A DNA stretch of 64,000 bases from Patescibacteria group bacterium (GTDB taxonomy: Bacteria; Patescibacteriota; Microgenomatia; UBA1400; PJMF01), in contig JBGTEY010000007.1 in assembly GCA_041747555.1 (NCBI GenBank), positions 11,426 to 75,425 on the forward strand, read 5' to 3'. The position numbers and the translations under genes were made by a program. Below the pieces are notes generated by a model. The model worked only from the letters and a program-made list of their open reading frames with translations. It did not search any database and was not told the DNA's origin. Below are positions 11,712 through 61,016 of the stretch, piece after piece (within the stretch, counting starts at the first letter, position 1; each line of letters begins with the position of its first letter).

Positions 11712-11712
11712 C

Positions 11713-12669
11713 GTGAGTACAAACCCTGTCGACATGCATGAACAGTTGGTGTCACTCTATCGGAGAGCGCTTCTTAGTGGAATTGACATGTCAGAGGTTG
11801 ATGACAAGATCTCAGAGTTTTCAGTTCGGCAAGATGCGAGTGAAAAAGTAGAAGAATTCCATGATGCAGAGCGAATCGGTCGAACGAAACGCGCTCTACC
11901 GACGCTGATGCGGGTAGGATCATTCTCGATTCCAGCACTTTTTATTGGAGTTGGCCTGTATTTGGTTGGGACTGCGGTTGTTCCAATCTTGGGATCATAT
12001 ATTTCGGCAACGTCTCAGTTGCAAGCTGCACAACTGATGGCGCCTATTCCTCAAGAAGAAGTTCTTGATGTTACGCCATTAGTGATCACTCAAGAACAAC
12101 CGAGTGAAAAAAGTCAGGTAGATTTGCAATCTGAGCCACAAATTATTGACGAGGCACTTGACTACACCAACTTAAATAATTGGTTTGCAGACGCAACCTT
12201 GCCAGAGTTGGCAAATGCAAAAGAAGTTGAAGGCGAAGAATATATTGTCGATATACCTAAGCTTAATGTAAGCAACGCTCGAGTGAAGGTTGGTGGTACC
12301 GACTTGGATGAGAGTTTAATCGCGTATCCAGGCACTGCGCTCCCAGGCGATGTTGGAGCACCTGTAATTTTTGGACACTCAGTGTTACGGGCCTACTACA
12401 ACCCTAGTGAAAAGAATTCACGCCGCTACAATTCCATATTTAGTACCATTATGACGCTCAAGGCCGGTGATGAAATCTTTGTCACCCAAGATGGGGTAAA
12501 ATATAAATATCTGGTTCAAGAAAAAACAGAAGTAAAACCAGAGGATGTGTATATCCTGAAACAAAACTACTCGGTGAAGCAGCTCAAATTAGTAACGTGC
12601 ACTCCTGAGGGAACATACCTTCGACGCGGCGTGGTTACTGCAACTTTGGTCCCGTTTGCTGAAGAATAA
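11713..12669 (+). CDS. Sortase-family transpeptidase, membrane-anchored
   Basis: GTG start 1 nt after the upstream stop and preceded by AGGAGGAG. N-terminal TM helix. Catalytic His in VIFGHSVLRAYY. The TLxTC motif appears as KLVTCTPEGTYLRRGVVTA, with the active-site Cys and the conserved Arg. Confidence 0.75.
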   Translation: MSTNPVDMHEQLVSLYRRALLSGIDMSEVDDKISEFSVRQDASEKVEEFHDAERIGRTKRALPTLMRVGSFSIPALFIGVGLYLVGTAVVPILGSYISATSQLQAAQLMAPIPQEEVLDVTPLVITQEQPSEKSQVDLQSEPQIIDEALDYTNLNNWFADATLPELANAKEVEGEEYIVDIPKLNVSNARVKVGGTDLDESLIAYPGTALPGDVGAPVIFGHSVLRAYYNPSEKNSRRYNSIFSTIMTLKAGDEIFVTQDGVKYKYLVQEKTEVKPEDVYILKQNYSVKQLKLVTCTPEGTYLRRGVVTATLVPFAEE

Positions 12670-47932: not shown

Positions 47933-48711
47933 AATCCAGTGCCCTCAAAGTGCCTCAATCCTTGACGCCATATAAATGATCTAAGGAGGGTGAATACGAT
48001 TAACCAGACAGCTAGAATTCCGAGACTTTGTAAACCAACAGGTACAGTCATTTCACCCTGGAGTAATCTAATTGGGGTAAATGCAAGATGTTGGAATGGT
48101 AGGTAAAATGAAACGTTCTGAAATGCTTCCGGAAAAAATGAAATTGGAATCAGCGTCCCGGCCAAAAAACGATTTGTGCTGGTAAGCGCCCAGCGGAGCG
48201 AATAGATTTCAGTAAACCAAAATGTGAAAATTGAAATTAAACTCAAAAAAGTAAAAGAAAACAGAAAGATCAGGGGCGCAAAGACTGTTGCAAGAAGTAT
48301 GTGCTGCAGTGATGGAGGCGTCCAGGCATTGAGCAAGATGAGAGCGGGTAAAAGTATGACCACCTTCATCAGCGTTTCAACGACAACTTTAGCAGTCTCG
48401 AATGACACATAGTACCCAAGTGGAGAAATTGGTTTAACTAAATATTTGGTGAGATGTCCCAATCGAATGTCGTCCTCGATATACCAAGGATGCATATTTG
48501 AAAGACTATAAAGCATCGCAGAAAACACAAAGTAGGTGATGGTTTCAGATTGTGAGAAGGTACTCCCTGGATTGCTGGATTCAACAGCCAGCCATACAAA
48601 CGTCATCATCAAAACCATGCCAGCGTACTTAAAGGTACTCAAAAACAAGTCTGCGCGATACGTTAGTACATCCTGAAAACTAGAGAAAAACACCAACCAA
48701 TACTTTTGCAT
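47929..48711 (-). CDS. ABC-2 family transporter permease, type B copy 2
   Basis: Begins MQKYWLVFFSSFQDVLTYR. Overlaps the next gene by 4 nt. Confidence 0.75.
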   Translation of the reverse strand: MQKYWLVFFSSFQDVLTYRADLFLSTFKYAGMVLMMTFVWLAVESSNPGSTFSQSETITYFVFSAMLYSLSNMHPWYIEDDIRLGHLTKYLVKPISPLGYYVSFETAKVVVETLMKVVILLPALILLNAWTPPSLQHILLATVFAPLIFLFSFTFLSLISIFTFWFTEIYSLRWALTSTNRFLAGTLIPISFFPEAFQNVSFYLPFQHLAFTPIRLLQGEMTVPVGLQSLGILAVWLIVFTLLRSFIWRQGLRHFEGTGL

Positions 48712-48815
48712 CAGAAGCGTATTGTACCAGGGAATATCGGGTGGTTGAAACGGTAGGTTGCGTCAGCCACAAAAAACTGCCGTAGCGTTTTTATTGAATA
48801 AGAAAAGCTATAGCT

Positions 48816-49091
48816 TTACCAAACTTTTTTCTTGAGAGGTTTACCTACGCGGAAGTTGACAACTCGGTGGCCTTTGATGATCTGGCGTTTCTTCTCATTG
48901 CCGAACGGTACGACTTCTTTGTCCTTTACACCGCTGACATAAAACGTGCCAAAGCCTGATATGACAACTTTTTCACCCTTTTGGAGGGCTCTGATAATTT
49001 CATCAAAAAGTGCTTCGACTGCTTCAGTGGCTGCACGTTTGGTGAGGTGAGCTTTTTTGGCAACGATGGCGATGAGTTGTGATTTGGTCAT
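48816..49091 (-). CDS. hup: HU-family nucleoid-associated DNA-binding protein
   Basis: 91 aa. MTKSQLIAIVAKKAHLTKRAATEAVEALFDEI ... GFGTFYV ... RVVNFRVGKPLK. Confidence 0.93.
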   Translation of the reverse strand: MTKSQLIAIVAKKAHLTKRAATEAVEALFDEIIRALQKGEKVVISGFGTFYVSGVKDKEVVPFGNEKKRQIIKGHRVVNFRVGKPLKKKVW

Positions 49092-49147
49092 TAATCCTTT
49101 CTAAAAAGATTATGTGCTATTAGTAAAAAAAGACCGTTGAGACTGGC

Positions 49148-49175
49148 ATTATAGCGACTGTGGGTGAGGTGTAAA
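49148..49175 (-). promoter_or_regulatory. Sigma70 promoter for hup (TTTACA-N16-TATAAT on the minus strand)
   Basis: Plus-strand ATTATA at 49148-49153 and TGTAAA at 49170-49175. Confidence 0.5.
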
Positions 49176-49199
49176 GACTCAGTCCACCTGTAATTTGAA

Positions 49200-49634
49200 T
49201 CATCTGCTTGTTTTGAATACGTTTGATCGTATCATAACTGATAGCGATGCACCAATCATGTCATAACCGACGTCGTAGATACTCGCGAATCTACCGGGCG
49301 TGAAAGATTGGTGGTATTCATCTGAAGCTGCATAGAAGAGGCAGATCAAAAGGCTGGTGAGTCCAATTATTTTTGGTTTGAGTGAAGTTGAGATATGTAG
49401 TGCTCGTTGCAAAAGCCAAGCTAGTACAAAGTAGACAAAAATATGTGCTGATTTTTTAAACAGATAATCGAGAGCGGAAACTGACGGGCCAGGGAGCGTT
49501 TGCTGAGAAGAAAGAAAAAATATGAGGGCTGCCCACGCAATTGGGGGGAGGTATGCAGAAAGTATGGTTCTCAAAGATGTTGAGATTAGGATTGGAGAAT
49601 GATTTGAAGATTTGCTAGGTGAGTGTTTCGACAT
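49200..49634 (-). CDS. VanZ-like family membrane protein
   Basis: FKKSAHIFVYFVLAWLL and DEYHQSFTPGRFASIYDV are VanZ signatures. Start taken at the internal M, MSKHSPSK, to avoid a long overlap. Confidence 0.6.
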   Translation of the reverse strand: MSKHSPSKSSNHSPILISTSLRTILSAYLPPIAWAALIFFLSSQQTLPGPSVSALDYLFKKSAHIFVYFVLAWLLQRALHISTSLKPKIIGLTSLLICLFYAASDEYHQSFTPGRFASIYDVGYDMIGASLSVMIRSNVFKTSR

Positions 49635-50838
49635 ATAGGGCTGGCAACGTTTTTTTACGATTTTGAGTTGGTTGATAGAGTAGTATTGCTGCGCTTGCAA
49701 GCAGGAGCGACCCACCAAGTATAACACTTTGGATACCGAGGAGTGAGGGTTCGCGTTTGATCCATATTTTTTCATAAGAAGTAGTTAAATCATCCTGAGT
49801 GAGTGAGTAGCTGTCTGTTGTGGGTGGAGTTAGATGGGCACTATACTTTTGGTAGTCGCGGGCAAAGGTAGATTTTGAGAGTGTTCGAGGGAGCTTGGTA
49901 TCTGACTGGCTGTTTGAACTAGGTGAATCGAAACTATTTCCTGATACTGTGGCAGAACTGGTGGCGACCGAATCAGGGACATGGGTAGTAAAGATTTCTC
50001 CAGTGCACGTTTGGTAGGCAGCTGACGCGATCAACTCAGATTGTGCGGTGTGTACTGCAAAACTGTCTCCGGAGTTATTAAGTAGAGCTCCCGACCAATC
50101 TAGTTTTGTTTTCTGATTAGGAACGAGTGTGCCTGCAAGCGTACGGGTGTTTCCTGATTCATCCGTTATGATCCAGTCATTGAAGGTGTGGAGTGCTGGT
50201 CCAGTATAGTTGAGTGATAGCCATTCCTTTTCACCACTGGGAGGACAAGGATGGTATGAAGTCAGGGAGATTGTTGAAGAATCGAGATTCTGTGAGGCGG
50301 GACTGGGTGTTGGCGATGGAGTGGGTGGTGGTGTTGTTGTCGGAGTTGGTGATGGCGATGGACTGGGAGAAGGAAGAGGTGACGCAAAATGAAATGGGTT
50401 AGGGTCGGTTTCGAAGTAGTTTTCAAAATCAGATGCAGTAAGACTCCAGGTTTTTCCCGGAGTTGAGCCTGAATAGCTCATCGAGGCGACTAGTTGATAT
50501 TCGCTGTTAAAGAGTGTCACACCATCTCCACTGTTATTTAGTTTCGCAGAACTGAGTGACACTACAAAAAATGCATTGGGAGATAGCAGCCACTTATCTG
50601 GCTGAGAGACATCATGCGCAAAATCAAAAATTCGTGCAGGACTTGCCAGATGATCCTCCAGATACCATTCGGTCAGGTCAACGACCTCTGGTCCGCTATT
50701 ATAGAGCTCGACCCATTCAGGTCCGGCTGTGGGTGCGGGGGCTACCTCGGATATAATGATGGCGGCTTGTGCATGATCAACAGCTAGTATCATGAACAAC
50801 GCACAAGCTGTCAGCCAATACAGGATTTTCCAGAGCAT
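49615..50838 (-). CDS. Secreted, membrane-anchored protein with two lamin-tail domains (LTD) separated by a Pro/Ser/Thr linker, and a C-terminal TM helix
   Basis: Signal peptide MLWKILYWLTACALFMILAVDHAQA. First LTD IIISEVAPAPTAGPEWVELYNSGPEVVDLTEWYLED. Linker PSPSPSPSPTPTTTPPPTPSPTPSP. Second LTD-like EKEWLSLNYTGPALHTFNDWIITDESGN. C-terminal TM LLGIQSVILGGSLLLASAAILLY. Confidence 0.65.
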   Translation of the reverse strand: MLWKILYWLTACALFMILAVDHAQAAIIISEVAPAPTAGPEWVELYNSGPEVVDLTEWYLEDHLASPARIFDFAHDVSQPDKWLLSPNAFFVVSLSSAKLNNSGDGVTLFNSEYQLVASMSYSGSTPGKTWSLTASDFENYFETDPNPFHFASPLPSPSPSPSPTPTTTPPPTPSPTPSPASQNLDSSTISLTSYHPCPPSGEKEWLSLNYTGPALHTFNDWIITDESGNTRTLAGTLVPNQKTKLDWSGALLNNSGDSFAVHTAQSELIASAAYQTCTGEIFTTHVPDSVATSSATVSGNSFDSPSSNSQSDTKLPRTLSKSTFARDYQKYSAHLTPPTTDSYSLTQDDLTTSYEKIWIKREPSLLGIQSVILGGSLLLASAAILLYQPTQNRKKTLPALYVETLT

Positions 50839-50926
50839 GTGCTGAGTATGACAAGGAATTCTTACACTCAGCTGACAGTAACTAAAAATGAGCGCTTCTA
50901 TCCGGAAGTGTGAGTATAAAGAAAAT

Positions 50927-53900
50927 TTATCCCAACACTTTGCGCACATTCTGTTGCACTTCACGAGATCGAGAGAGGTGGGTGCGTGGCAGGGTTACAG
51001 GTTGTTGTCTGGTAGCCACAATCAACCATCCAAAAATAATTGGCAATACCAACAAACCTATTAGTTCCAAGTACTGCGGCCAAAAAAGCATTGTAATAGT
51101 TACTGTTTGCGCGCCATCATCAGCTCCTGGTGAAATCACCCAAGCATTCTGCCAACCATTGGCAACTGTATGAGGGTACGGTCGCCAGAATTGAAATCCG
51201 GAAAATGCAATCCAGCCAGCATCATACGATTGAGAGAGTAGTAGTGTGGTTTCTGACACGGGATCTATTTGAACGTCGGCTGAATATCTAGTTGGAGTAA
51301 TTTTCTGGGAAGTGTTTACCACTGCCGTTGTCGTGTGCTCGACAGTTGCTGCTGGCTCAAGTCTAATCCCAGACAAGTACTCTAGAGTAACTGGGAGTGA
51401 GTAGCTTTCTGCTACGAGGAGCGTATTCACTGAATCCTCACCCGCTACAGAACGATTTTCAACCGATGCCCAATATGAACCGGCATACATTCCTCCCCAA
51501 TTGGGTATAGTAAACACTTCATCGAAATCACCCCCACTACCCAAATGTTCTAGCTCAAGTCGCTGATTATTATTATTTTCGAGATATAACTTAAGACTCC
51601 TACCCACGTCGTTGTACCCGATCATGCGAATAATTTGCGTACCCGGCAATTCGACGGTCGAGCCGAGACATACTGCACCGTTATCTTCTGAAGATAAAAC
51701 AAGTGCAGACCGAATCCGATCTTTGCCAACAGAAATATTTCCCCGTTGATACAAATCACAATTAAGCGGTGTAATTTGTGCAAAGTTAGCCAAAATATTA
51801 TTTCTTTGAAGGGGCGCAAATAGTAATTCAAGTGATCCAGTTCCTGAAGTATCAAGTGCAAACCGCTGCTCACTGATGAGGTCATTCCATATTGTGCCTG
51901 CAAAATCTTGCGAAAGAATTCCGCTTACTGGTAACTCAACCATCACAGAAACGGACTCACCGACTTGCAGTCCTTTTAGTTGCTTAGTTTCAGACTGATC
52001 TGTAGTAACCGTAAATTGTGTATCACCTATGGTGATCTGTGCAGCAGAGATTGGTTCCGCAGTCTGTATTTCAAGACTAGGAAGGTGGCCAACGGGATAG
52101 GTTTTTTCTCCTTGCTTCACTAGGGCAAGCGGGGAGAAGGTGATTTCTATTCCAGAAGCAGTCACGGCTGCAGTTGCCACAGGATAGACCATCGTCCCAG
52201 CTTCAAGTGCAGGTACCACGAGATCGTCAGATACAGATATTTCACTCGATGCATTGAGAAGTAAATCACCCGATTTATCGAAGGTGTGTGCTACCCGATG
52301 TTCGGTAATTTTTGAAAACGGAAATGTGCTAGCTTTTTCGGAAAAAAAAGGCTGGCGATATTCCCCAAGAGTAGCAGAAACAGGATCAAATCGAGTAAAC
52401 TCGGTATCAGATTCAACTACCGTCACGGTAGTAGGAATTGAAACTGCACCTTGTTCAGAGCTTGGTAGCTGATAGACAGTCAATAAATCCTCAGACCAAA
52501 CAGGCCGTGCTCCAATCTCTGCCAGGAGTGTCTTGCTCCCAGAAATCCACACTACCGATTGCGACCGCCGTTGCGGGGCAATGATACTCTCATCAAGCAC
52601 AAAATAATCAATATCATATTGATGAGCAGTAGTTCTAAATCCTTCGGCATCTAGCTCGTACAAATTGGTTGAAAGTTGTTTGTACAGTGTTTCATTGGTA
52701 GCGTTCCATCGGTCGAAATCTCGAACGACCGTCGCTTGTGGTAACCCAAACCAAATAAATCCTGGGCCTTCATATCCCCAAGACATATAATCCCAGCCAT
52801 GGAGCGTTTGCATTGGTAACTGCACGACCCGACTTTCCTCAGGTTGAGTTTTCATGAACTCAAAGAGCGTGCTGTAGCTCTGCGGAATGTCATTATGAAG
52901 TTTGGGCGATATCAATTCTCCAGACAGCAGCGGGTATCCAAAGTACATAAGCATACCTACAAAAATACCCGCAACCAGCGAACTACCAGGCACAGCATCA
53001 GATTTTTTCTCAATTTTTTTAATCCCTGTGAGTAAGAATGCAGTGGATACACTTAGCAATAGCGCTGTCGCAATCATAAATACCAGTGAAAATTTTGTAA
53101 ACGGAAACCGCAAGCCTTCCTCAAAAAAGCTGTTATTAGTTCTTAAAAAATTAAAAATGCTCGTAAATGGTGGGTTTTCATTGATCAACATAAATACAGA
53201 AAATACCCAAGCTGGGACAATCAGAAACAATGCACGCCATTTTTTTAACAATACTATTGAAAAAGAGAGGAGCACCGTCAATGCCACGAGCAATCCAATA
53301 GCACTTACCCCAAATCTTCCCAGATGCGTAATCCAAGGCTCGAGTAGTGGACCAAACGCATGTTCTTGGTTGTCATACACCGACCAATTAAACAAAAAAT
53401 TTCTCAACAGCGGTAAATGCTCAAAAGTGCCAAACGCTTTATTCTGCAAAAATGCCTCTGTACTAAATAATTCATTAATATGTGCATTTTTGGGATTTGC
53501 AGAAGCCCCAGAAAATAAAAAATAAAAATTAGGCAGTAACCAAAATAAATTTGTCATCACCAACACAATTCCAACTTGTGTAGCACTCCAAAAACGTTTC
53601 AAAGATTTCGTCAATATTGCCCGAAACACCACCGTCATTCCCAACGCCCCTGCAAACGCAAACCACAGCGTACTCGCATAGGCCATAGGCGCTGCCAAAA
53701 GACTCACTACCGCAAAATACAACAGCGTCCGCTTGTCGCGATCCTCCAAGTATTTCAGTGCATAATAAAACAACCACCCAATCGCCGCATACTGCACCGC
53801 AAACATTTCAAACACCACATAAAAATGCTGGACCGCTCCCAGATTAAAAATATACCAAACCCCAGCAACGAGCGCCGACAATTCGGCAATTTTTCTAGAA

Positions 53901-54283
53901 GTCTTCGCATAGTTTTGCAACGCAAAACGAACCAATTGAAACACCCCAATCGGCCCGAGCACCAGACAAATCAATACATATATTTTTTTTACCGTATAAA
54001 TCGGTGCAATAAGAGACAAAAGCCACAAGATAGCCACCCGCGGTAAATCACTCATATGCGCATGAGCCGCCACCGCTCCAAGACCTTGATCCTCGCGCCA
54101 GACTCCAAACAAAAGTCGCTTGAAGTTCAGTGCAAAATCAAATTCTGGATGCAGCGTATCCCAGCCCGTCAGCCAAGTAGAACCATCAAAATTACGCACT
54201 GCCACAATAAACGCAATAAAAAACAACACCATCAACGGTATCTCACCCTTTAGAAAACGGAAAAATCTGGACAGGACTTTCAT
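50927..54283 (-). CDS. Giant polytopic membrane protein, 1118 aa, with a GT-C-fold-like architecture. It has an N-terminal multi-TM block, a large extracytoplasmic domain and a C-terminal TM helix. Putative polyprenyl-phosphate-sugar-dependent glycosyltransferase (YfhO/PMT-like).
   Basis: At least 12 predicted TM helices in the first ~560 aa, about 500 aa of soluble domain, and a final TM helix LIGLLVLPIIFGWLIVA. Start ATGA-overlaps the upstream BNR gene. It sits directly downstream of a GT2 polyprenyl-phosphate glycosyltransferase. Confidence 0.45.
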   Translation of the reverse strand: MKVLSRFFRFLKGEIPLMVLFFIAFIVAVRNFDGSTWLTGWDTLHPEFDFALNFKRLLFGVWREDQGLGAVAAHAHMSDLPRVAILWLLSLIAPIYTVKKIYVLICLVLGPIGVFQLVRFALQNYAKTSRKIAELSALVAGVWYIFNLGAVQHFYVVFEMFAVQYAAIGWLFYYALKYLEDRDKRTLLYFAVVSLLAAPMAYASTLWFAFAGALGMTVVFRAILTKSLKRFWSATQVGIVLVMTNLFWLLPNFYFLFSGASANPKNAHINELFSTEAFLQNKAFGTFEHLPLLRNFLFNWSVYDNQEHAFGPLLEPWITHLGRFGVSAIGLLVALTVLLSFSIVLLKKWRALFLIVPAWVFSVFMLINENPPFTSIFNFLRTNNSFFEEGLRFPFTKFSLVFMIATALLLSVSTAFLLTGIKKIEKKSDAVPGSSLVAGIFVGMLMYFGYPLLSGELISPKLHNDIPQSYSTLFEFMKTQPEESRVVQLPMQTLHGWDYMSWGYEGPGFIWFGLPQATVVRDFDRWNATNETLYKQLSTNLYELDAEGFRTTAHQYDIDYFVLDESIIAPQRRSQSVVWISGSKTLLAEIGARPVWSEDLLTVYQLPSSEQGAVSIPTTVTVVESDTEFTRFDPVSATLGEYRQPFFSEKASTFPFSKITEHRVAHTFDKSGDLLLNASSEISVSDDLVVPALEAGTMVYPVATAAVTASGIEITFSPLALVKQGEKTYPVGHLPSLEIQTAEPISAAQITIGDTQFTVTTDQSETKQLKGLQVGESVSVMVELPVSGILSQDFAGTIWNDLISEQRFALDTSGTGSLELLFAPLQRNNILANFAQITPLNCDLYQRGNISVGKDRIRSALVLSSEDNGAVCLGSTVELPGTQIIRMIGYNDVGRSLKLYLENNNNQRLELEHLGSGGDFDEVFTIPNWGGMYAGSYWASVENRSVAGEDSVNTLLVAESYSLPVTLEYLSGIRLEPAATVEHTTTAVVNTSQKITPTRYSADVQIDPVSETTLLLSQSYDAGWIAFSGFQFWRPYPHTVANGWQNAWVISPGADDGAQTVTITMLFWPQYLELIGLLVLPIIFGWLIVATRQQPVTLPRTHLSRSREVQQNVRKVLG

Positions 54284-55404
54284 GCAGTCTGTACAGTATA
54301 GGGCATTTTAACCATTTTGTGTGGTTCGTCCATCCATGTTCCCTGACTGCAGAGCAAGATTCCAGACGTGCCGTCCTCGGACGTTGGGACGAGCGTGGGA
54401 TAGCTATACCAAACGTCGCCTTCTTTGCGTTGGTCGTGTGAAGTTGGGAAGGAAAGCATTTGCTTGGGTTGGGTCCAGGTAATGCCATATACAGAGGTGC
54501 AACTATAAAATCCATTACTTGATTCGAAGCTGAGGAGATAGCAATCTTGATCTGGCACATACTGGATTCCCGCCAGAGATTTATATGCCTCATGTACTCC
54601 ATCAACGACTCCAGGCTCAAGCTCTAGTTGTGATTCGAACGATTCCCAGGCATCGGGTTGGTCCACTTGATCAATTAATGCGCGTTTTATTTGTATCGAA
54701 TGCATAGAAGCTGCCCACTCAGTGTGATAGACATAGACGTATGGACCAATAATTATGGCTGAGGGCTGACCAACTCCACTCACTGCAGTTGGCTCTTCAT
54801 CGGGAAATGGGGCGGTGATAATCGGTTGTGTTTCGCTCCAAGTTTGCCCACTGTCTGAGGAAATGGTAATGGCAATTTGAGCATGAAAGGGAAAACTACC
54901 ATTATCACCATGAAATTCTTGATGGACGAAGCCAATGCGAATATTTGGGGTAGGCGCGACAACAGAGCTGATCGCTGAGTAGCGCAATCTTCCGTACCCT
55001 GATGTTTGTTCATAGTTAGGTGACGTGATCACGACAGGATCAGTAATTTGCTCAATCGCTCCTTCTTTAGAAATATCCCATTCAGCGCGATATCCACGAG
55101 TGCCCGCAGAAAAATACACCTCAGCCTGATTAGGATTAGATGGATTTGGAATGACGCTCGTATGCGTATCGGGGTAATGGGTGAGCTCAGGGATTGGCAC
55201 TTCTTCAAGCTGTGAAACGTCAACTATAATTTCCAGGTTAGGTGGCGTGCGCGTTACTTCTGGTGTAGGAATTGAGATTTTTCTATCAAATCCACAGCCA
55301 GTGCCCAACAGACCAGCTAATGCACTTCCAAAGAGTAATTTAAGTGCGTTTCTTCGCGATATTCGTTCGGGTAGTACAGTAGATCGCCCAGATTTTTCAT
55401 CCAT
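54280..55404 (-). CDS. Secreted BNR/Asp-box-containing beta-propeller-like protein (sialidase-like fold), with a twin-arginine signal and a possible lipobox
   Basis: N-terminus RISRRNALKLLFGSALAGLLGTGCG, with an RR motif and a Cys. An Asp-box SSDSGQTWS is present, and a second, degenerate GITWT. Confidence 0.45.
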   Translation of the reverse strand: MDEKSGRSTVLPERISRRNALKLLFGSALAGLLGTGCGFDRKISIPTPEVTRTPPNLEIIVDVSQLEEVPIPELTHYPDTHTSVIPNPSNPNQAEVYFSAGTRGYRAEWDISKEGAIEQITDPVVITSPNYEQTSGYGRLRYSAISSVVAPTPNIRIGFVHQEFHGDNGSFPFHAQIAITISSDSGQTWSETQPIITAPFPDEEPTAVSGVGQPSAIIIGPYVYVYHTEWAASMHSIQIKRALIDQVDQPDAWESFESQLELEPGVVDGVHEAYKSLAGIQYVPDQDCYLLSFESSNGFYSCTSVYGITWTQPKQMLSFPTSHDQRKEGDVWYSYPTLVPTSEDGTSGILLCSQGTWMDEPHKMVKMPYTVQTA

Positions 55405-55438
55405 GCGTTTTAGTATACCTCATCTGGAGAACTGAGTA

Positions 55439-56182
55439 TTAGGCTTGCGCTACTGCCTGAATCATGGCTCGCTTAATCAACCGTGCTCTCAACATAAACG
55501 TTTCACGCACAGCCTTGAAAATCACTCCCAGATTAGATCCAGTTGGATTTCCAAAACGACGCTCATAGTGGGTCACCCCAACTTGTTCGTAGTGAAAGCC
55601 TGCATGATATGCCTTGAGCAGCAATTCTGTAGAGATCATAGCTCCGTCAGAGAAGAGCGGCTCGATAGCACGCAGGACGTCTTTGTGAATTAATTTAAAG
55701 GCACAGTCGGTGTCTTTGATGTTGCTTGGGAATCCAAGCAGTACACGACTCCAGATTTTGAGCATTTTCGCGAGCATGGCTCGTTTGAAGCCTTCTGCGC
55801 GATTTTTGCGGAATCCTAAGACCATGTCATTATGCTGGGAATGTTTCAGAAATTTACCGAGTTCTCGCAGGTTAAACTGCAAGTCACTATCGGTAAAGAA
55901 TACCCAGTCATACTTGGCGGTCTTGAAGCCGCGTTTGAGCGCGCCACCGTACCCAAGATTCTTCTGGGAAATGACACGAACGGTTTTATATTTTTTAGCC
56001 AAGGCCTTAGCGCGATGAAAAGTTTCATCGGTACTGCCGTCATTGACTACGATAATCTCGTATTTTTTGGCAATGGTTGGCAAGACCTGAAGCGCTTGCT
56101 TGACTGCTGGCCCGATATTCTCCTGCTCATTGTAGGCAGGGAAAAACAGGGACAGTGATGATAGTTTTGGGTATTTTGGCAT
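55439..56182 (-). CDS. GT2 family polyprenyl-phosphate glycosyltransferase, Dpm1/GtrB/ArnC-like soluble form
   Basis: LSLFFPAYNEQENIGPAV ... EIIVVNDGSTDET ... FFTDSDLQF, which supplies the DxD. No C-terminal TM helices. Confidence 0.75.
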   Translation of the reverse strand: MPKYPKLSSLSLFFPAYNEQENIGPAVKQALQVLPTIAKKYEIIVVNDGSTDETFHRAKALAKKYKTVRVISQKNLGYGGALKRGFKTAKYDWVFFTDSDLQFNLRELGKFLKHSQHNDMVLGFRKNRAEGFKRAMLAKMLKIWSRVLLGFPSNIKDTDCAFKLIHKDVLRAIEPLFSDGAMISTELLLKAYHAGFHYEQVGVTHYERRFGNPTGSNLGVIFKAVRETFMLRARLIKRAMIQAVAQA

Positions 56183-56213
56183 AGTGCCTTTCTACAATCT
56201 CTCTTGAGATTGG

Positions 56214-56429
56214 TTATAACCCCTTATCTTTAAGACATTTTGTATACATGTCGGCTACTGGGTACCAGACTTCGACTCCATCTGCACTTCTGGTGAGATA
56301 GCGCGAACTCTGGGCACATTGGTAGCGAGCTTCGTTATTGACCTGCATTTGGTAGAGGTAAAGACCAAAACCAACGAGACCAGCGAAAATCAAACCAATG
56401 ATGAGGGTGGGTATTGTATTATTTTGCAT
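56214..56429 (-). CDS. Small single-pass membrane protein, 71 aa, first gene of the GT2 operon
   Basis: MQNNTIPTLIIGLIFAGLVGFGLYLYQ then a Cys-containing tail. It lies 31 nt upstream of GT2. The ORF-track N-extension was rejected. Confidence 0.4.
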   Translation of the reverse strand: MQNNTIPTLIIGLIFAGLVGFGLYLYQMQVNNEARYQCAQSSRYLTRSADGVEVWYPVADMYTKCLKDKGL

Positions 56430-56626
56430 GTTTTTCTTTCTGTTTTCTTTGTACAGACACCGGATGCTCGTTGCTTTGTGCCTTGTGCTGGGTCTGCTTC
56501 TATTGAAGTAGATTGTCCAGCGCCTTGTGGCGTGAGCATTGAGCAAGCCTGGTGTTCCGAGACCACCTCTTTTTGGAGATGAGCTCAGAACACCAGGCTA
56601 CAGGGTTGTAGTGGTGTTTTGTTACT

Positions 56627-56658
56627 AACCAGGTGACGGCTTTTAGGCCGTCACCTGG
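56627..56658 (-). terminator. Bidirectional rho-independent terminator
   Basis: ACCAGGTGACGGCttttaGGCCGTCACCTGGT. Confidence 0.65.
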
Positions 56659-56672
56659 TACCTCATAGAGGC

Positions 56673-57842
56673 CTAGGGGGTAGGGCGTTCGTAATCGACT
56701 TCTCCGTGAATCAGGACTTCGATACCTGACGTCACGAAAAACTGATTATTTACACCGAGACAACCTTCAATAAAGCTGCAGTTGCCTCCCGCATTCGCGA
56801 GTTCCGTTGGGTTTAACTCACTGACACCATCTGTCATGTTCCACGTTGCGTGGGCCATGACGGCAGTAATTGCCTCGGGGAGGTGATCCCCATGGAAATA
56901 ATTGCCAGTGACAATGAAAGTGTTATCCAGGGTACCCGTAAATTCGGCCGAAGCGTAGCCCACATTTACGATGAGCAACGCGCAACCCAAGGGTTGATCT
57001 TCAGTAGTTACACAAGATCCCAGCCCGTCTAAGGACCAAGACCCTGTTACGAGCGTGTAATGCTCGCCCGCAACTACCAAATCACACTGGTCATTAGCCG
57101 CCCCACAGAATTGAGTTTGGTCCTGTGCGTAGTACATACCCCATTCGGCCGGAAAATCGGCTTCGGGGTTGTCTACGTCAGGGAACTCAACCCACAGGGG
57201 GGGATCCAGTGTGGGGAAGGCTGCCCAAGGGATTGAGCCTTGTCCGAGCATCTGGAGGGTTGCACCCTCGAAATACTCGACATACCAGCCGTTCACATCT
57301 GCTACCTGAGCGGCAGCAGGTAAACTGCTAGTTGTAACGTTTGTGTCGGTCGTGGTCGTGACTTTTACGCCATTCTCAACCTTCACCTCAGTTTCCAGAC
57401 CTCTCGCTTCCTCTACTTGATCCCGATACTCCTCAAGGGAGCTGGGAATACCACCGAGAATGCCGTTTGAGCTTTCAGTGGTTTCGGTCGAGGGTTGTGC
57501 GGGGGTTAGCGCAAGCGCCACTTGGTTTGAAACATCCTCTAAGAATTCCGTGTCCGTAATGATACGGGCGACGATCTCCTCAGTGTCAGCATCTTCACCG
57601 TCGGCACCTGCAACGCCTTGTGTACCGCGAGGGCCCTGAGGGCCTTGTGGGCCGGTTGTCGGCTCGATTTTCTCAAGCTCGGCAACCCTTTGGTACAAAT
57701 CATTAACTGCTACACGGTTTTCCGTGATTGCAGGGTTGGCCTCTGCCTGGTTTTCATTCCAGAACCACAGACCAACCATTGCCAGTACCAAGAAAAAAGA
57801 GAGAAGGGCGAAGCTAATCGCCAGGTTTACTTTTGCGTTCAT
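56673..57842 (-). CDS. Membrane-anchored protein with a short collagen-like (Gly-X-Y)7 stalk and a ~250-aa Cys-containing C-terminal globular domain
   Basis: Start at MNAKVNLAISFALLSFFLVLAMVGLWFW, with GGAGG 8 nt upstream. GPQGPQGPRGTQGVAGADGED. Confidence 0.55.
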   Translation of the reverse strand: MNAKVNLAISFALLSFFLVLAMVGLWFWNENQAEANPAITENRVAVNDLYQRVAELEKIEPTTGPQGPQGPRGTQGVAGADGEDADTEEIVARIITDTEFLEDVSNQVALALTPAQPSTETTESSNGILGGIPSSLEEYRDQVEEARGLETEVKVENGVKVTTTTDTNVTTSSLPAAAQVADVNGWYVEYFEGATLQMLGQGSIPWAAFPTLDPPLWVEFPDVDNPEADFPAEWGMYYAQDQTQFCGAANDQCDLVVAGEHYTLVTGSWSLDGLGSCVTTEDQPLGCALLIVNVGYASAEFTGTLDNTFIVTGNYFHGDHLPEAITAVMAHATWNMTDGVSELNPTELANAGGNCSFIEGCLGVNNQFFVTSGIEVLIHGEVDYERPTP

Positions 57843-58405
57843 TTTTTTGCCTCCTTGACAATTGATGAACATGGTCGCCGAGATCATGGTGGCGACCAAA
57901 GTTGACGTGCCGGATACCATCCGGCCATTTTTTCCTTCCGCGAAAACCGCGGATCGTCTAGCATCAAAGCGGGGCGGAAGGGGTACCAGACGTGCGATCG
58001 TTTGATCACACACCTAATGCCCCTTCCGCGAGGAGAACATGAACGTGCATTTACCCTTTTGTAATAAAAAACACTATAAATACATTCATCACTCGTAACT
58101 TAATACGCGTGATTCCCTGTAGCCTGTTAAAGATCGACTGTTTCGAACCGAAGTTCAATTCAGTCAATTTGTTTGTTTAAGCCGAAGCTTAAACGCTGCT
58201 CTGTCCCGTTTCGCCAAACATCGGCGCGATGCCGAGCTGGCAAGTGAGCTGAGCAGGGCAGTGGTTGTATCGCTCTTCAAAACTTACAACCACTGCTCTA
58301 CGCAGCTTGGTGTCGCTCTAAAATTCATGAAATGGGGTCGGGGTTTGAAGAGCGACTGACAGTTTTTTATTTAATGTACGTACTCATTGAGTACCACTAT
58401 GAATA

Positions 58406-58434
58406 ACTATATCACTGTATAACTAACTTGTCAA
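58406..58434 (-). promoter_or_regulatory. Sigma70 promoter on the minus strand (TTGACA-N17-TATAGT) within the shared CCCATAGTATTGACA motif
   Basis: Plus-strand ACTATA at 58406-58411 and TGTCAA at 58429-58434. It fires toward the collagen-like gene about 560 nt away. Confidence 0.45.
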
Positions 58435-58687
58435 TACTATGGGATGTAAAAATGGGTTATCCAGGCTAAATCAGTCTATTTTGCTTGGTTTATTGGTTGA
58501 TTTGTGGTGCTGGTTTGCCTGGGAAGGGAAACCAGAGTGGACCGGAGTTGAGTTAAGCCTTTTTTAGGGGCACAGGTGTTTTTAGGCACCTGCTCAAGCT
58601 CCGGTCCGGTGGGATCCTCGCCGTTACGACTTGCCTAGCGCGAGGCTAGGCTGGCGTGCGGGGGAGGAGTTCTGGTAAGTTGGGGAA

Positions 58688-59308
58688 TTAATCGCTTATC
58701 GTGATCTCGAAGGGGAAGCTTTGGCTACCAAGTGTCAGTAGTCCGTCAAAGCTTTTGGTACCTCCCGGGGTGTAGGAATACCAGTGACTCGTTTGTGCTG
58801 AGCCATTAGTAAATTCCACATCTGTTTCCGTTCCGTCTCCAAAAGAAACATTTCCCCACCCATTGGTGGTTGGGGAGCAGTTAAAATTGATGACGATATG
58901 GTTAACAGCTTGACCCTGAGAAGTGACGGTTGTGCAGTTGTTTATTGGGGGGGAGTCGTCAATCACAACTTTGTAGTGAAACGTGCTGTTTCCTACAGTA
59001 AAGAATGTGTTGTACTCCATGATACCACCAGGCGTGTAGCTGTAGTCATGGCTTGTCGTTCCGGGAGGAACGCTAAGCCCGGTGCCAGTACCGTCTCCAA
59101 AATCAAGGAAACCTTCAACATCCCCATCGCACTCGACGGTGAAATTGAAGCTGTTGATAGTCCCTTGTTTGACGACAGCAGTTGAGGTACAGCTGAGCCC
59201 ACCTACTGTTTCAGCTTGGGCTGTTTGAGTTCGAGTTGCGCCTGCAAGCAGTGCAATTAAACCCAAAAGTAGCACTAAAAATGCGATTTTTTTCACTATT
59301 TGTTTCAT
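58688..59308 (-). CDS. Secreted protein with two tandem PKD-like domains
   Basis: Signal peptide MKQIVKKIAFLVLLLGLIALLAGA. Repeat 1 FLDFGDGTGTGLSVPPGTTSHDYSYTPGGIMEYNTFFTV. Repeat 2 VSFGDGTETDVEFTNGSAQTSHWYSYTPGGTKSFDGLLTL. Both fit the PKD pattern FGDG ... H.Y ... G.Y. Confidence 0.65.
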   Translation of the reverse strand: MKQIVKKIAFLVLLLGLIALLAGATRTQTAQAETVGGLSCTSTAVVKQGTINSFNFTVECDGDVEGFLDFGDGTGTGLSVPPGTTSHDYSYTPGGIMEYNTFFTVGNSTFHYKVVIDDSPPINNCTTVTSQGQAVNHIVINFNCSPTTNGWGNVSFGDGTETDVEFTNGSAQTSHWYSYTPGGTKSFDGLLTLGSQSFPFEITISD

Positions 59309-59782
59309 TTTCTTACTTTTTTCCTTTTTCAGAATATTGTTGTCTTCTAATGAAACCCCAAGTATTGAACTTGAGTCAGGGAATCACACCCCGTCTGCCA
59401 AACGCCCGGCTAGGCCTTGAGTCATTTACACCTCCTTTTGGTTTTTCTGTAGACTCGTCATAAACTCCAGTTTCCTCAAGTACATGACGAGTCTACCGAA
59501 TTGCCGAAGGAAGTCCCTTTGATCAATCCTTTTTCCTTACCAGATGTTAAAGAGCGGCGATGCGTGTGCATCGCGTCCTACGCGCGCGACTCAACACCAG
59601 ATGCAATATCTGGGTGAGGGTTGCGAGCAGGCGGATGGGGACAACGTTTGTTGTTTGGTTGGGGAGATGGAGGCGAATTGGTTGTCTCCAACCGTGTGCT
59701 CACAGTGTATATAAGCGTATCACCTCTAGGTCTATAAGTCAATACTATGGGATGTTAAAGAGAAATGTCTTGACCAAAAAAA

Positions 59783-59812
59783 TGACCGCCCCCTCGAGAG
59801 AGGGCGGTCTGT
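59783..59812 (-). terminator. Bidirectional GC-rich terminator, a member of the repeated CCGCCCCC-core family
   Basis: AAAAAAATGACCGCCCCCtcgagagaGGGCGGTCtgtt. Confidence 0.65.
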
Positions 59813-59817
59813 TAGTT

Positions 59818-60162
59818 CTATCTGCGAATCACACCTCCTTTTGGTACCTTGTGTATGACCCAAGTACCAAATATGGTTGCAAGAGGTACGACCCCTGCTA
59901 TGCCACAAGAAAAAAGTCCCAGTCCAAGTAGTTGTAGCCCCATTATTAGTAGGTTGCTTGTACTGGCGGTCATCGCGGTCGTAGCGCTCAATCCCAGACC
60001 ATATGTCGCTGCGAAACCAGCAACGTACGATAGTATGAGAATAAACCACCACCTACCTCTTTTTTCTTTGGTAAAAATGGTGGCACAAACGAGCCACCAC
60101 ATCACCCCTGTCCAGAGCCCAAACCAATAAGGCCAGTTCTCTGGATTAAAAATTGATAGCAT
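59818..60162 (-). CDS. Small 3-TM membrane protein, 114 aa, in the WWF family shared with 60453..60725 and 62963..63235
   Basis: SD AAGGAGGT 7 nt upstream. MLSIFNPENWPYWFGLWTGVMWWLV ... RGRWWFILILSYVAG. Confidence 0.5.
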   Translation of the reverse strand: MLSIFNPENWPYWFGLWTGVMWWLVCATIFTKEKRGRWWFILILSYVAGFAATYGLGLSATTAMTASTSNLLIMGLQLLGLGLFSCGIAGVVPLATIFGTWVIHKVPKGGVIRR

Positions 60163-60420
60163 ATAGCTACCTCCTTCGAATAATCTCCTCCGAAGAGGGA
60201 AGCTCTACGCACCGTAATGCGCACAGCTCCCCTCTTCGAGAGATCGTTTGGAGGTCCAGAGGTGAAATGTTAAATAGCAGATAGATGATGCAAGCTCAAA
60301 CTCCACGACTTTTGACGCAAATGTCAGGATCGTTTTGTGCAAACTTCATCAGGATAATTATACAGGAAGTAGTATTAGAATGTACTATGGGATGTATTAA
60401 AAGTGTTTTTGAGCAAAAAA

Positions 60421-60464
60421 ATGGCCGCCCCCCTTGGGGAGCGGCCGTAGCTCTATTTTTTTTC
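60421..60464 (-). terminator. Bidirectional terminator, near-identical to the copy at 62926..62966
   Basis: AAAAAAATGGCCGCCCCCCttggGGAGCGGCCgtagctctaTTTTTTTT. Confidence 0.7.
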
Positions 60465-60725
60465 ACCTCTTCTCAGACTAAGAAACGCCACGCCAACAGA
60501 TATTACGATTGGCGTCAATTTTTGGACAATTTCCAGCCAGCCGCCGTCGGCGGCGGGTGAAACCTGTAAAATTGTGTTTTCAATGTTGATCATTGAAAAC
60601 CATAAAGATGTGGCAATTGCTACAAACCACCATTTAGAACTATTTTGTCGCAGGCCAATCTGTATGGTGATATAGACTAATGCCAGTGTACTAATTGCTG
60701 TCAAAAAATAAACTAAAAAAATCAT
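60453..60725 (-). CDS. Small 3-TM membrane protein, 90 aa, paralog of 62963..63235
   Basis: GGAGG then ATG at 60725. MIFLVYFLTAISTLALVY ... KWWFVAIATSLWF. The ORF-track N-extension to 60887 was rejected because it runs through the conserved leader. Confidence 0.5.
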   Translation of the reverse strand: MIFLVYFLTAISTLALVYITIQIGLRQNSSKWWFVAIATSLWFSMINIENTILQVSPAADGGWLEIVQKLTPIVISVGVAFLSLRRGEKK

Positions 60726-60990
60726 TTGTTTCCTCCATGAGAGTTTTATTCCCTTTCCTCGTGAAAGGGCCACCAAACACGATGATGCAGATACATCATG
60801 TGCAGCGTCCCTTTCTCGAGATGGAGGCGTGGTTTTATGAGCCTTAGTGAAAAGGTGTTTTAAAGAGCTAAATCGATAGATGCTCATTTATATGTAACAG
60901 TATCTGATGCGATTTCAGGCTGTTCCACACAAACTACATCAATTCTATTATGACATTAAACGGCCAAGTGTCAATACTATAGGACTATAA
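60726..60990 (-). repeat. Conserved promoter-plus-leader repeat, copy 1. It holds TTGACA-N16-CATAAT and a ~215-nt structured 5' UTR.
   Basis: About 85% identical to 63236..63492. Anti-SD CCUCCAU at plus 60821-60827 can pair with the SD region at 60732-60738. Alternative GAAAGGG/CCCUUUC pairings are possible. Confidence 0.55.
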
Positions 60991-61016
60991 GAGATATTTT
61001 GTGAAATGGCTCGATC

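Follow-up and report, generated by a model that had tools for sequence, protein, structure and literature searches.

A cluster of genes on the minus strand of a 64,000-nt stretch of contig JBGTEY010000007.1, from a Patescibacteria group bacterium (Microgenomatia), was analysed after a sequence-only reading had described it as a surface glycosylation-like operon. The whole stretch is called the window below, and all coordinates are counted within it. The cluster centers on a 1118-amino-acid (aa) polytopic membrane protein of glycosyltransferase C (GT-C) type. It also includes a family 2 glycosyltransferase (GT2), a beta-propeller protein, a small transmembrane protein, a protein with lamin-tail domains (LTD), a VanZ-family protein and, furthest upstream, a Cys-rich anchored protein named up446. 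On balance, we lean toward the cluster serving extracytoplasmic glycosylation through a lipid carrier in a Microgenomates-group bacterium. The two-step logic put forward from the sequence alone, a GT2 followed by a GT-C enzyme acting outside the membrane, is supported by the fold of the large protein, the homology of the GT2 and the linkage of both genes in 10/10 of the closest loci.

The large protein alone had no match in Pfam, in NCBIfam or among the sequences of the Protein Data Bank (PDB). A total of 257 relatives were found among 185,579 species genomes, and those carrying an informative organism label were Microgenomates-group bacteria of the candidate phyla radiation (CPR). An AlphaFold2 (AF2) model was built from a 46-sequence alignment, with a predicted local distance difference test score (pLDDT) of 89 and a predicted template modeling score (pTM) of 0.88. 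In this model, about 12–14 transmembrane helices within residues 1–450 are followed by an extracytoplasmic ectodomain of about 600 aa (residues ~455–1069), composed of alpha/beta and beta-sandwich folds, and by a single C-terminal transmembrane helix at 1070–1093. When this model was compared with the PDB using Foldseek, AftD of M. abscessus (6w98) ranked first with an E value of 1.6e-16, followed by STT3, AglB, PglB and EmbA/B/C, with ArnT at rank 50. The 16 best PDB matches were all GT-C enzymes (E values from 1.6e-16 to 1.6e-4). The GT-C-like character proposed earlier for this protein was therefore found by the AF2 and Foldseek check, with AftD as the best match, and the predicted structure is that of a GT-C fold enzyme of the AftD type. 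The outcome that the sequence-only reading had named as its refutation, a large protein lacking any GT-C-like fold, thus did not occur. In sequence, AftD was also the sole significant PDB match of the family profile (E = 7e-4), the only other match being at chance level (E = 3.2). The AftD match was confined to the membrane-proximal last beta-sandwich before the C-terminal helix, where the motif NGWxxxW is found.

Residues D42, E159, R392, K397, D524 and R525 are invariant in the large protein, and the invariance of D42, E159, K397 and D524 holds across 46 relatives sharing 29–77% identity. D42, in the motif GWDTLHPEF, is invariant or nearly so both in these 46 and in a set of 12 relatives, and it stands just after the first transmembrane helix (residues 11–29). 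An acidic residue is thus present in the predicted first outer loop, where the sequence-only reading had proposed to look for a DxD/DE motif. The loop would face outward because the N-terminus of the protein is positively charged. The conservation of acidic and basic residues within the membrane domain argues for catalysis.

Mycobacterium arabinofuranosyltransferase D (PDB 6w98 and 6wbx, Pfam PF11847) served as reference for a comparison of architectures. AftD has been described with 11 transmembrane helices, a soluble GT-C domain, three carbohydrate-binding modules (CBMs), a beta-sandwich, a twelfth transmembrane helix, and helices 13–16 with a bound acyl carrier protein (10.1101/2019.12.22.885152). 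With the ectodomain taken as a whole, the order of parts is shared, with a polytopic N-terminal GT-C domain, a beta-sandwich ectodomain and a C-terminal transmembrane part. The last beta-sandwich is similar in sequence (NGWxxxW), and the acidic residue after the first helix occupies nearly the same position (D42 here, D41 in AftD). In contrast, overall identity is 12%, the window protein is about 300 residues shorter, and it ends in one C-terminal helix instead of five, so that the acyl-carrier-protein-binding module of AftD is probably absent. The linked donor enzyme also differs, being a GT2 and not a maker of decaprenyl-phospho-arabinose (DPA). Moreover, the present family is found in CPR bacteria, whereas AftD homologues have been reported across Actinobacteria only (10.1101/2019.12.22.885152). 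The large protein stands outside the Pfam AftD family: the gathering score of PF11847 (GT-C_AftD) was not reached, neither the window protein nor its 77%-identical relative matched this model up to E = 10, and relatives P0031 (22.9 bits) and P0033 (25.8 bits) fell short of its cutoff of 26.

The GT2 was next to be placed among enzymes of known structure. Its best NCBIfam match was of ArnC type, far under the cutoff of that model, and the single sequence matched DPMS (1.8e-15), ArnC (1e-14) and GtrB (5e-11) in the PDB. A profile was made from eight sequences: the GT2 of the window with six of its close orthologs, and a more distant GT2 from locus L052. With this profile, full-domain matches were obtained only with DPMS (5.6e-25), ArnC (2.8e-23) and GtrB (1e-22), over residues 10–230, 5–222 and 10–183 of 255, respectively. 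Other GT2 enzymes aligned only at about positions 4–126, the N-terminal nucleotide-binding half. Both D98 and D100 of the DSD motif are invariant. This restriction of full-domain similarity to DPMS, ArnC and GtrB sustains the earlier identification of the protein as a polyprenyl-phosphate glycosyltransferase, and we regard it as a candidate polyprenyl-phosphate sugar synthase acting at the membrane surface. A form devoid of transmembrane helices would fit this role. Some polyprenyl-phosphate sugar synthases, such as the mycobacterial Ppm1 and PpgS, also lack such helices, so that a C-terminal anchor is not universal among them.

The neighborhood was compared in a sample of 80 loci from species-representative genomes, together with loci around selected homologues (numbered with the prefix L), whose open reading frames (ORFs) were searched with the window proteins and iterated profiles. 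In the ten closest orthologous loci, where the best tblastn segment of the GT-C is 31–52% identical, the GT2 gene lies directly upstream of the GT-C gene in every case. Genes for LTD, VanZ and HU proteins follow downstream wherever the contig reaches. Synteny was thus confirmed, the order GT2, GT-C, LTD, VanZ and HU being kept in 10/10 of these loci. The GT2 stays adjacent even in loci that have an inverted or absent propeller gene and a 633-aa gene inserted downstream. The propeller gene itself is more mobile: it is co-directional with and overlaps the GT-C gene in the window and in L086, divergent in L001, about 3.8 kb away in L002 and L012, and was not detected in the others of the closest loci. 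Overall, the propeller family adjoins the GT-C in 8/80 scanned loci and in L001, L002 and L086, in differing orientations.

Across the wider family, the commonest neighbor of the GT-C is an up446-like Cys-rich anchored protein, encoded co-directionally upstream in 26/59 loci according to hidden Markov models. A gene for the small transmembrane protein adjoins the GT-C in 24 of ~70 loci, some of which have no adjacent GT2, and a sortase gene is found co-directionally within 3.5 kb upstream in 23/59. A second context consists of an S1-domain protein, a RadA-like ATPase, a sortase, a membrane-anchored Cys-rich protein and the GT-C, as in L004, L005, L035, L037, L056, L060, L061, L064, L077, L085 and others. 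As judged from these homologue searches, the conserved module of the window reaches upstream to the gene at 56673–57845.

Many of the metagenome-assembled genomes with the locus (L007, L010, L012–L015, L020 and others) are titled uncultured Gammaproteobacteria, Pseudomonadales, Eubacteriales, Bacteroidota or Nanoarchaeota. These titles look unreliable, their gene content and neighbors matching those of Microgenomates-group genomes. The closest relative of the window, L086, shows a mosaic of identities. Along L086:5650–6820, the block holding the leader, the small transmembrane gene and the GT2 gene (window 55440–56600) has a DNA identity of 90–97% with low synonymous divergence, a fraction of 0.75–0.85 of the identical residues being encoded by the same codon. 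The adjoining genes are 55–71% identical in DNA, with a codon figure of 0.34–0.55. Such a pattern suggests either recent recombination between lineages or an unusual constraint on the block.

The protein previously labeled BNR appears to be a different kind of beta-propeller. It holds a single Asp-box (SSDSGQTW, residues 182–189) and not several, and its PDB sialidase sequence matches are limited to that segment; a BNR/sialidase (GH33) assignment was consequently rejected. Its only Pfam match was DUF4185, at 21.2 bits and hence under the cutoff of 39.5, so that the gathering score of PF13810 was not reached by the window protein. Nevertheless, 23/46 of its relatives match PF13810 at E values up to 0.01 (best 5.5e-13), and its homologue P0124 from L001 (29% identical, E = 6e-35), to which the precomputed database hits assign PF13810, is a genuine member of that family. 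A word-indexed homology search had returned 3–4 proteins for this 374-aa sequence, while an exhaustive profile search returned 590 representatives. The N-terminus carries a twin-arginine translocation (TAT)-like SRRNALKLL motif followed by a conserved Cys, i.e., a lipoprotein-type signal, and 7/46 family members match TAT_signal. An AF2 model (pLDDT 79, from a 4-sequence alignment) was matched by Foldseek about equally to GH117, EndoMA1 (GH183), GH43 and sialidases, the best query-normalized template modeling score (TMq 0.52) being that of EndoMA1. Residues D79 and E163 are invariant in the family. DUF4185 corresponds to family GH183, retaining endo-D-arabinanases with a five-bladed propeller found mainly in Actinobacteria, and their catalytic residues are Asp33, Asp51 and Glu243 in EndoMA1 numbering (PMC10509167). 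In comparison with EndoMA1 (PDB 8hhv), the window protein shares a propeller-type fold as modeled, the PF13810-related family and an extracytoplasmic location. It differs by the absence of a CBM domain, by its TAT/lipoprotein-type signal and by its invariant D79 and E163, in place of a demonstrable D33/D51/E243 set, and its family profile gave no sequence match to EndoMA1. Based on its family and modeled fold, we consider this protein a surface-anchored, glycosidase-like relative of GH183 and a candidate surface glycanase. It would more likely be an enzyme partner than a glycosylation substrate; the sequence-only reading had it as a plausible substrate or partner.

The cluster is preceded by a structured leader. 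The 12-bp inverted repeat noted earlier, AGCCTGGTGTTC...GAACACCAGGCT, is real (56599–56588 and 56557–56546) and forms part of a longer hairpin. For the 146-nt leader, the folding z-score is -8.7, and none of 200 shuffled sequences folded as well. The hairpin (56546–56599) is preceded by the 5' flank CCTGTAGCC|TG (consensus YCTGTATGCC|TG), and like hairpins occupy the same place in other loci, after the flank YCTGTATGCC|TG or TGATGATGCC|TG. In a nine-locus alignment, the consensus helix has 19 pairs, of which 13 are changed on both sides. The cells of the helix are paired in 93.6% of cases, a value reached by 0/500 shuffles and compared with 43–57% in slid-partner controls. The helix holds 19 G-U cells vs. 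4 A-C cells, being better on the operon strand, and this excess indicates an RNA rather than a DNA palindrome. Further sense-strand copies were detected by the covariance model R1 in L012, L023, L083, L018, L011 and L021, each time shortly upstream of the gene that opens the GT-C module, whether the small transmembrane gene, the propeller gene followed by that of the GT2, or the GT-C gene. Rfam 15 gave no match at gathering thresholds across the window, and at E up to 1 in 48700–58500 none apart from a chance microRNA match elsewhere; no tRNA or tmRNA match was found either. The leader is a conserved structured RNA matching no Rfam family. No conserved -35 box was seen upstream of the motif and no sigma-70-like site between 56672 and 56430. 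As a guess, the leader could act after transcription, through stability, RNase III-type processing or attenuation. Two lines of evidence were discarded. The near-identity of the leader to that of L086 does not by itself speak for an RNA, as the whole block is 90–97% identical, the real evidence being the covariation among distant loci. An exact-stem metagenome scan gave one match, on an unrelated high-GC contig, judged to be due to chance.

Upstream of the leader, a 13-bp hairpin starts right after the up446 stop codon (56628–56659), the leader repeat lying 28 bases further on. The stem is kept in L086 through several compensatory changes, and in other loci a corresponding hairpin comes after the up446-like gene. 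Further up, between the ORF at 58688–59308 and up446, a non-coding stretch of about 420 nt was observed on the minus strand (57990–58440). The best sigma-70-like promoter of the region (TTGACA-17-TATAGT with a TG, 58434–58406) marks its start. It is 95–100% identical to L086, with complete identity in five of seven 60-nt bins, between flanking genes at 40–60%, and it folds with a z-score of -7.0 and several UUCG-type tetraloops, with no Rfam, tRNA or tmRNA match. This stretch is a candidate for a novel structured RNA or for a long structured 5' untranslated region of up446. In three Levybacteria-type loci (L027:7243–7688, L034:7247–7691 and L047:7248–7691), a spacer of about 440 nt separates an up446-like gene from the small transmembrane gene. 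These spacers are conserved among the three loci, have z-scores of -5 to -8 and carry the leader hairpin motif at their 3' end.

From these elements, a mechanism may be proposed. At the cytoplasmic face, the soluble or peripheral GT2 would use a nucleotide sugar as donor and place a single sugar on polyprenyl phosphate, in the manner of DPMS, GtrB and ArnC. The lipid-linked sugar would presumably be flipped across the membrane by a putative further component. The membrane domain of the AftD-like protein, with D42 in its first outer loop, would then pass the sugar to an acceptor outside. That the GT-C draws on a polyprenyl-phosphate-linked donor is inferred from the adjacent DPMS/ArnC/GtrB-like GT2. 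The GT-C would extend or decorate the acceptor, and trimming or remodeling would fall to the propeller. The structured leader RNA precedes the first cistron. Three-component lipid-carrier systems of this kind include GtrA/GtrB/GtrC, CsbB/GtcA/YfhO, ArnC/ArnT and Ppm1/PMT. The likeness lies in a DPMS/GtrB/ArnC-type GT2 beside a polytopic GT-C acting outside the membrane. The differences are that no GtrA/GtcA-type flippase was found in the window, that the GT2 is without transmembrane helices, and that the partners are the 71-aa membrane protein, VanZ, the GH183-like propeller and the LTD protein.

Most likely, the acceptor would be a glycan or glycoconjugate of the cell surface, either a polymer associated with the wall or the glycan chains of surface proteins. 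A glycan is favored because the ectodomain is AftD-like and because the gene of a glycosidase-like propeller overlaps the GT-C gene. Synthase/hydrolase pairs are coupled in other polysaccharide systems. The modeled beta-sandwich ectodomain speaks for a glycan acceptor no less strongly than for a protein one; in AftD, a glycan acceptor explains the extra beta-sandwich CBMs (10.1101/2019.12.22.885152).

The nature of the co-encoded surface proteins bears on this question. On the strength of their predicted features and homologues, the double-LTD protein, VanZ, the 71-aa protein and up446 are conserved co-encoded envelope partners, and apart from the GT2 the partners begin with a signal peptide, a signal-type motif or a transmembrane anchor. 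The LTD protein is predicted to be secreted, with two lamin-tail domains separated by a PS/PT linker and a C-terminal transmembrane anchor. Its double-domain description stands in part on Pfam and in part on internal similarity: domain 1 is called by PF00932 (67.7 bits vs. a cutoff of 34.3), whereas domain 2 is not called by Pfam and was recognized by its homology to domain 1 (BLASTP E = 2e-9). The linker proposed in the sequence-only reading is kept in 10/11 orthologs, where a 30-aa window with at least 70% S/T/P is found, as against 3.6% of background ORFs. The identity of VanZ was confirmed by two models above their cutoffs, PF04892 (5e-12; 47 bits, cutoff 30.1) and NF037970 vanZ_1 (2.5e-22; 79.6 bits, cutoff 20). 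The small transmembrane protein had no significant Pfam match and ends in a conserved motif with two Cys, QCA..SRY...YP..D.Y.KC. In up446, an N-terminal transmembrane anchor and a collagen-like GPQGPQGPRG stretch precede a C-terminal Cys-rich domain of about 210 aa, which has no Pfam or PDB sequence relative and whose alignment shows an invariant N, H, C and C.

Such proteins could be substrates themselves, the large protein being then a PMT/GT39-like protein O-glycosyltransferase acting on Ser/Thr of PT/PS stalks of the LTD and up446-like proteins. This is possible, if rather unlikely. Stalks are enriched over background both in LTD orthologs and in up446-like proteins, of which 9/33 have T/P-rich stretches vs. 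6% of background; the stretch of the window up446 is, however, collagen-like and not T/P-rich, and secreted proteins that are not glycosylated commonly have PT linkers too. The secreted Cys-rich anchored protein is the commonest gene product directly upstream (26/59) and a sortase is present in 23/59 loci. STT3, PglB and AglB, which rank just behind AftD in the fold search, act on proteins, but AftD, the closest structural relative and one with a similar large ectodomain, acts on a glycan, and no PMT structure was among the top 50 fold matches. The translational coupling of a glycosidase-like propeller to the GT-C also speaks against a protein acceptor. There is a precedent in Caldicellulosiruptor, where a GT39 GT-C is encoded near substrates with Thr/Pro linkers and is required for their glycosylation (PMC6151902). 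Caldicellulosiruptor Cbes_1864 and the actinobacterial PMT share with the present protein a location near secreted proteins with PT-rich linkers; the fold found here matches AftD and oligosaccharyltransferases rather than PMT, and the ectodomain is far larger.

Conversely, the resemblance to AftD may be taken literally, the large protein being an arabinofuranosyl- or furanosyltransferase and the DUF4185-like protein an endo-arabinanase of an arabinan-like wall polymer. AftD indeed ranks first in the fold search and is the one PDB sequence matched by the GT-C family, the GT-C and propeller families recur as neighbors in at least nine loci, and DUF4185 corresponds to the mostly actinobacterial GH183 endo-D-arabinanases (PMC10509167). 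Nevertheless, what is strictly linked here on the donor side is a GT2 resembling DPMS, ArnC and GtrB, and not an enzyme of DPA type. DPA, the arabinofuranosyl donor, is made by a phosphoribosyltransferase and the DprE1/DprE2 epimerase, not by a GT2. Among the scanned ORFs of the window, as distinct from the rest of the genome, no DPA-pathway gene was found. The Pfam AftD cutoff is unmet, even the two near-threshold relatives falling short and the window protein scoring nothing; the propeller lies under the DUF4185 cutoff with fold matches generic among glycoside hydrolase propellers; and the GT-C has one C-terminal helix vs. five in AftD. We therefore hold true arabinan counterparts to be very unlikely.

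Returning to the lipid-carrier-dependent system, several observations weigh against it. The 247-aa GT2 has no transmembrane segment by hydropathy, unlike DPMS, GtrB and ArnC. The large protein matches no Pfam or NCBIfam GT-C model, and a profile of its N-terminal 610 residues had no PDB sequence match. The essential residues of AftD are K39, D41, E251, K361 and D474 (10.1101/2019.12.22.885152). It is plausible that the invariant residues of the window protein correspond to this set, but the correspondence is not an aligned one: sequence and profile searches matched nothing there, hence no residue-level mapping. Likewise, D79 and E163 of the propeller are not alignable residue by residue to D33, D51 and E243 of GH183. 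None of the window's small membrane-protein ORFs was found to be a GtrA-like flippase. In the wider family, an orthologous GT2 is adjacent in ~12/69 loci and another GT2 type in ~5, most GT-C genes having no GT2 neighbor. Finally, the cluster sits beside a ribosomal-protein region in a generally syntenic backbone, so that its conserved order could be partly historical.

These last two points would also be expected if the genes were neighbors through backbone synteny only, the GT-C being functionally independent of GT2, LTD and VanZ, or a non-catalytic scaffold. The cluster lies between a ribosomal-protein region with ABC-2 genes and unrelated genes, the whole order recurs in relatives, and HU, which is not evidently connected with glycosylation, is conserved downstream to the same degree, with a promoter-like site of its own (49175–49148). 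Against this stand the overlapping stop and start codons and gaps of 31–88 nt, the 10/10 adjacency of the GT2 despite inversion or loss of the propeller gene and the 633-aa insertion, the invariant charged residues in the GT-C membrane domain, and a dedicated conserved leader RNA before whichever module gene is first. We judge such a purely positional association improbable.

The features of the cluster are listed in Table 1.

Table 1. Genes and non-coding elements of the cluster, in order along the minus strand (window coordinates).
Feature	Coordinates	Strand	Remarks
up446 (Cys-rich anchored protein)	56673..57845	minus	ORF runs to GTG 58013
Terminator-like hairpin	56628..56659	minus	13-bp stem, 6-nt loop, without U-tract
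Conserved leader RNA motif	56538..56612	minus	5' flank and long hairpin at 56546-56599
Small single-pass transmembrane protein, 71 aa	56214..56429	minus	Full ORF 56214-56546
GT2, 247 aa	55439..56182	minus	Pfam PF00535, E 3e-28
DUF4185/GH183-like beta-propeller, 374 aa	54280..55404	minus	Sub-threshold DUF4185 match, family and fold
AftD-like GT-C, 1118 aa	50927..54283	minus	AF2 model and Foldseek
Double-LTD secreted protein	49615..50838	minus	PF00932, E 1e-18; ORF 49615-50964
VanZ-family small membrane protein	49200..49634	minus	PF04892, NCBIfam vanZ_1; ORF 49200-49775

All six co-directional genes described earlier exist as ORFs on the minus strand, spanning 56429 to 49200. The ATGA overlap between the propeller and GT-C genes is real at 54280–54283, provided that the GT-C starts at MKVLSR. 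This positively charged N-terminus is kept in homologues, whereas a start at Met18, given in one public gene call, would abolish the overlap. The 20-nt overlap between the LTD and VanZ genes was read directly at the junction (VanZ ATG at 49634, LTD stop at 49615–49617), and the remaining intergenic gaps are 31, 34 and ~88 nt. Some starts had to be revised. The small gene does encode a protein with one transmembrane segment, but of 71 aa and not 110: the TTG at 56546, which opens the 110-aa ORF, falls within the leader hairpin and was dismissed as spurious, and the ATG at 56429 is conserved in 24 homologues. For the LTD gene, the GTG at 50964 was replaced by a start at ~50838, where the signal peptide MLWKIL... 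begins, and up446 likely starts with MNAKVNL at 57845 and not at the GTG 58013.

Downstream of VanZ on the minus strand, the window ORFs comprise HU and then ABC-2 transporter genes, the HU family being confirmed by Pfam/NCBIfam as were those of GT2, LTD and VanZ. A strong promoter-like site (TTTACA-16-TATAAT, 11/12) lies between VanZ and HU at 49148–49175 on the minus strand; HU is probably transcribed separately on this account, though its position is conserved. Elsewhere in the window, a 206-aa secreted protein with two internal repeats (...FGDGTGT...YSYTPGG... and ...FGDGTET...YSYTPGG...) and no Pfam match is encoded at 58688–59308 on the minus strand. It is adjoined, at higher coordinates, by about 1.7 kb (59309–61016) with only short, odd, overlapping ORFs and no Rfam match, among which a 114-aa ORF (59818–60162) has several hydrophobic stretches and no family match. 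On the plus strand at 9300–12669, an 803-aa protein has one central transmembrane segment and a weak Baseplate_J-like match, with a sortase gene directly after. It was considered as a paralogue of the GT-C and found to be unrelated.

The pairing logic of a GT2 and a GT-C is already known. What appears to be new is a CPR-wide family of AftD-fold GT-C proteins without a curated model, its link to a GH183-like propeller, the CPR-specific partners and the leader RNA. In the literature, we found no paper tying AftD, DUF3367 or DUF4185 to CPR bacteria. Such bacteria are thought to have minimal envelopes, and we know of almost no experimental knowledge of their surface outside Saccharibacteria, although these host-dependent cells encounter their partners there. 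The locus offers testable items in this respect, namely a lipid-carrier pathway made of a GT2 and a GT-C, a candidate glycanase, candidate surface substrates and a leader RNA. It would also extend an AftD-like architecture and a GH183-like propeller beyond Actinobacteria, their reported home, and so bears on the evolution of the mycobacterial cell-wall machinery. A bolder idea, to which we give little credence, is that Microgenomates own deep homologues of the actinobacterial arabinan machinery, with an AftD-type GT-C and a GH183-type endo-glycanase serving a furanoside polymer, together with CPR-specific partners and an undescribed leader RNA. If an arabinan-like reading were true, CPR bacteria would have a furanoside-containing wall or surface polymer that they both build and remodel.

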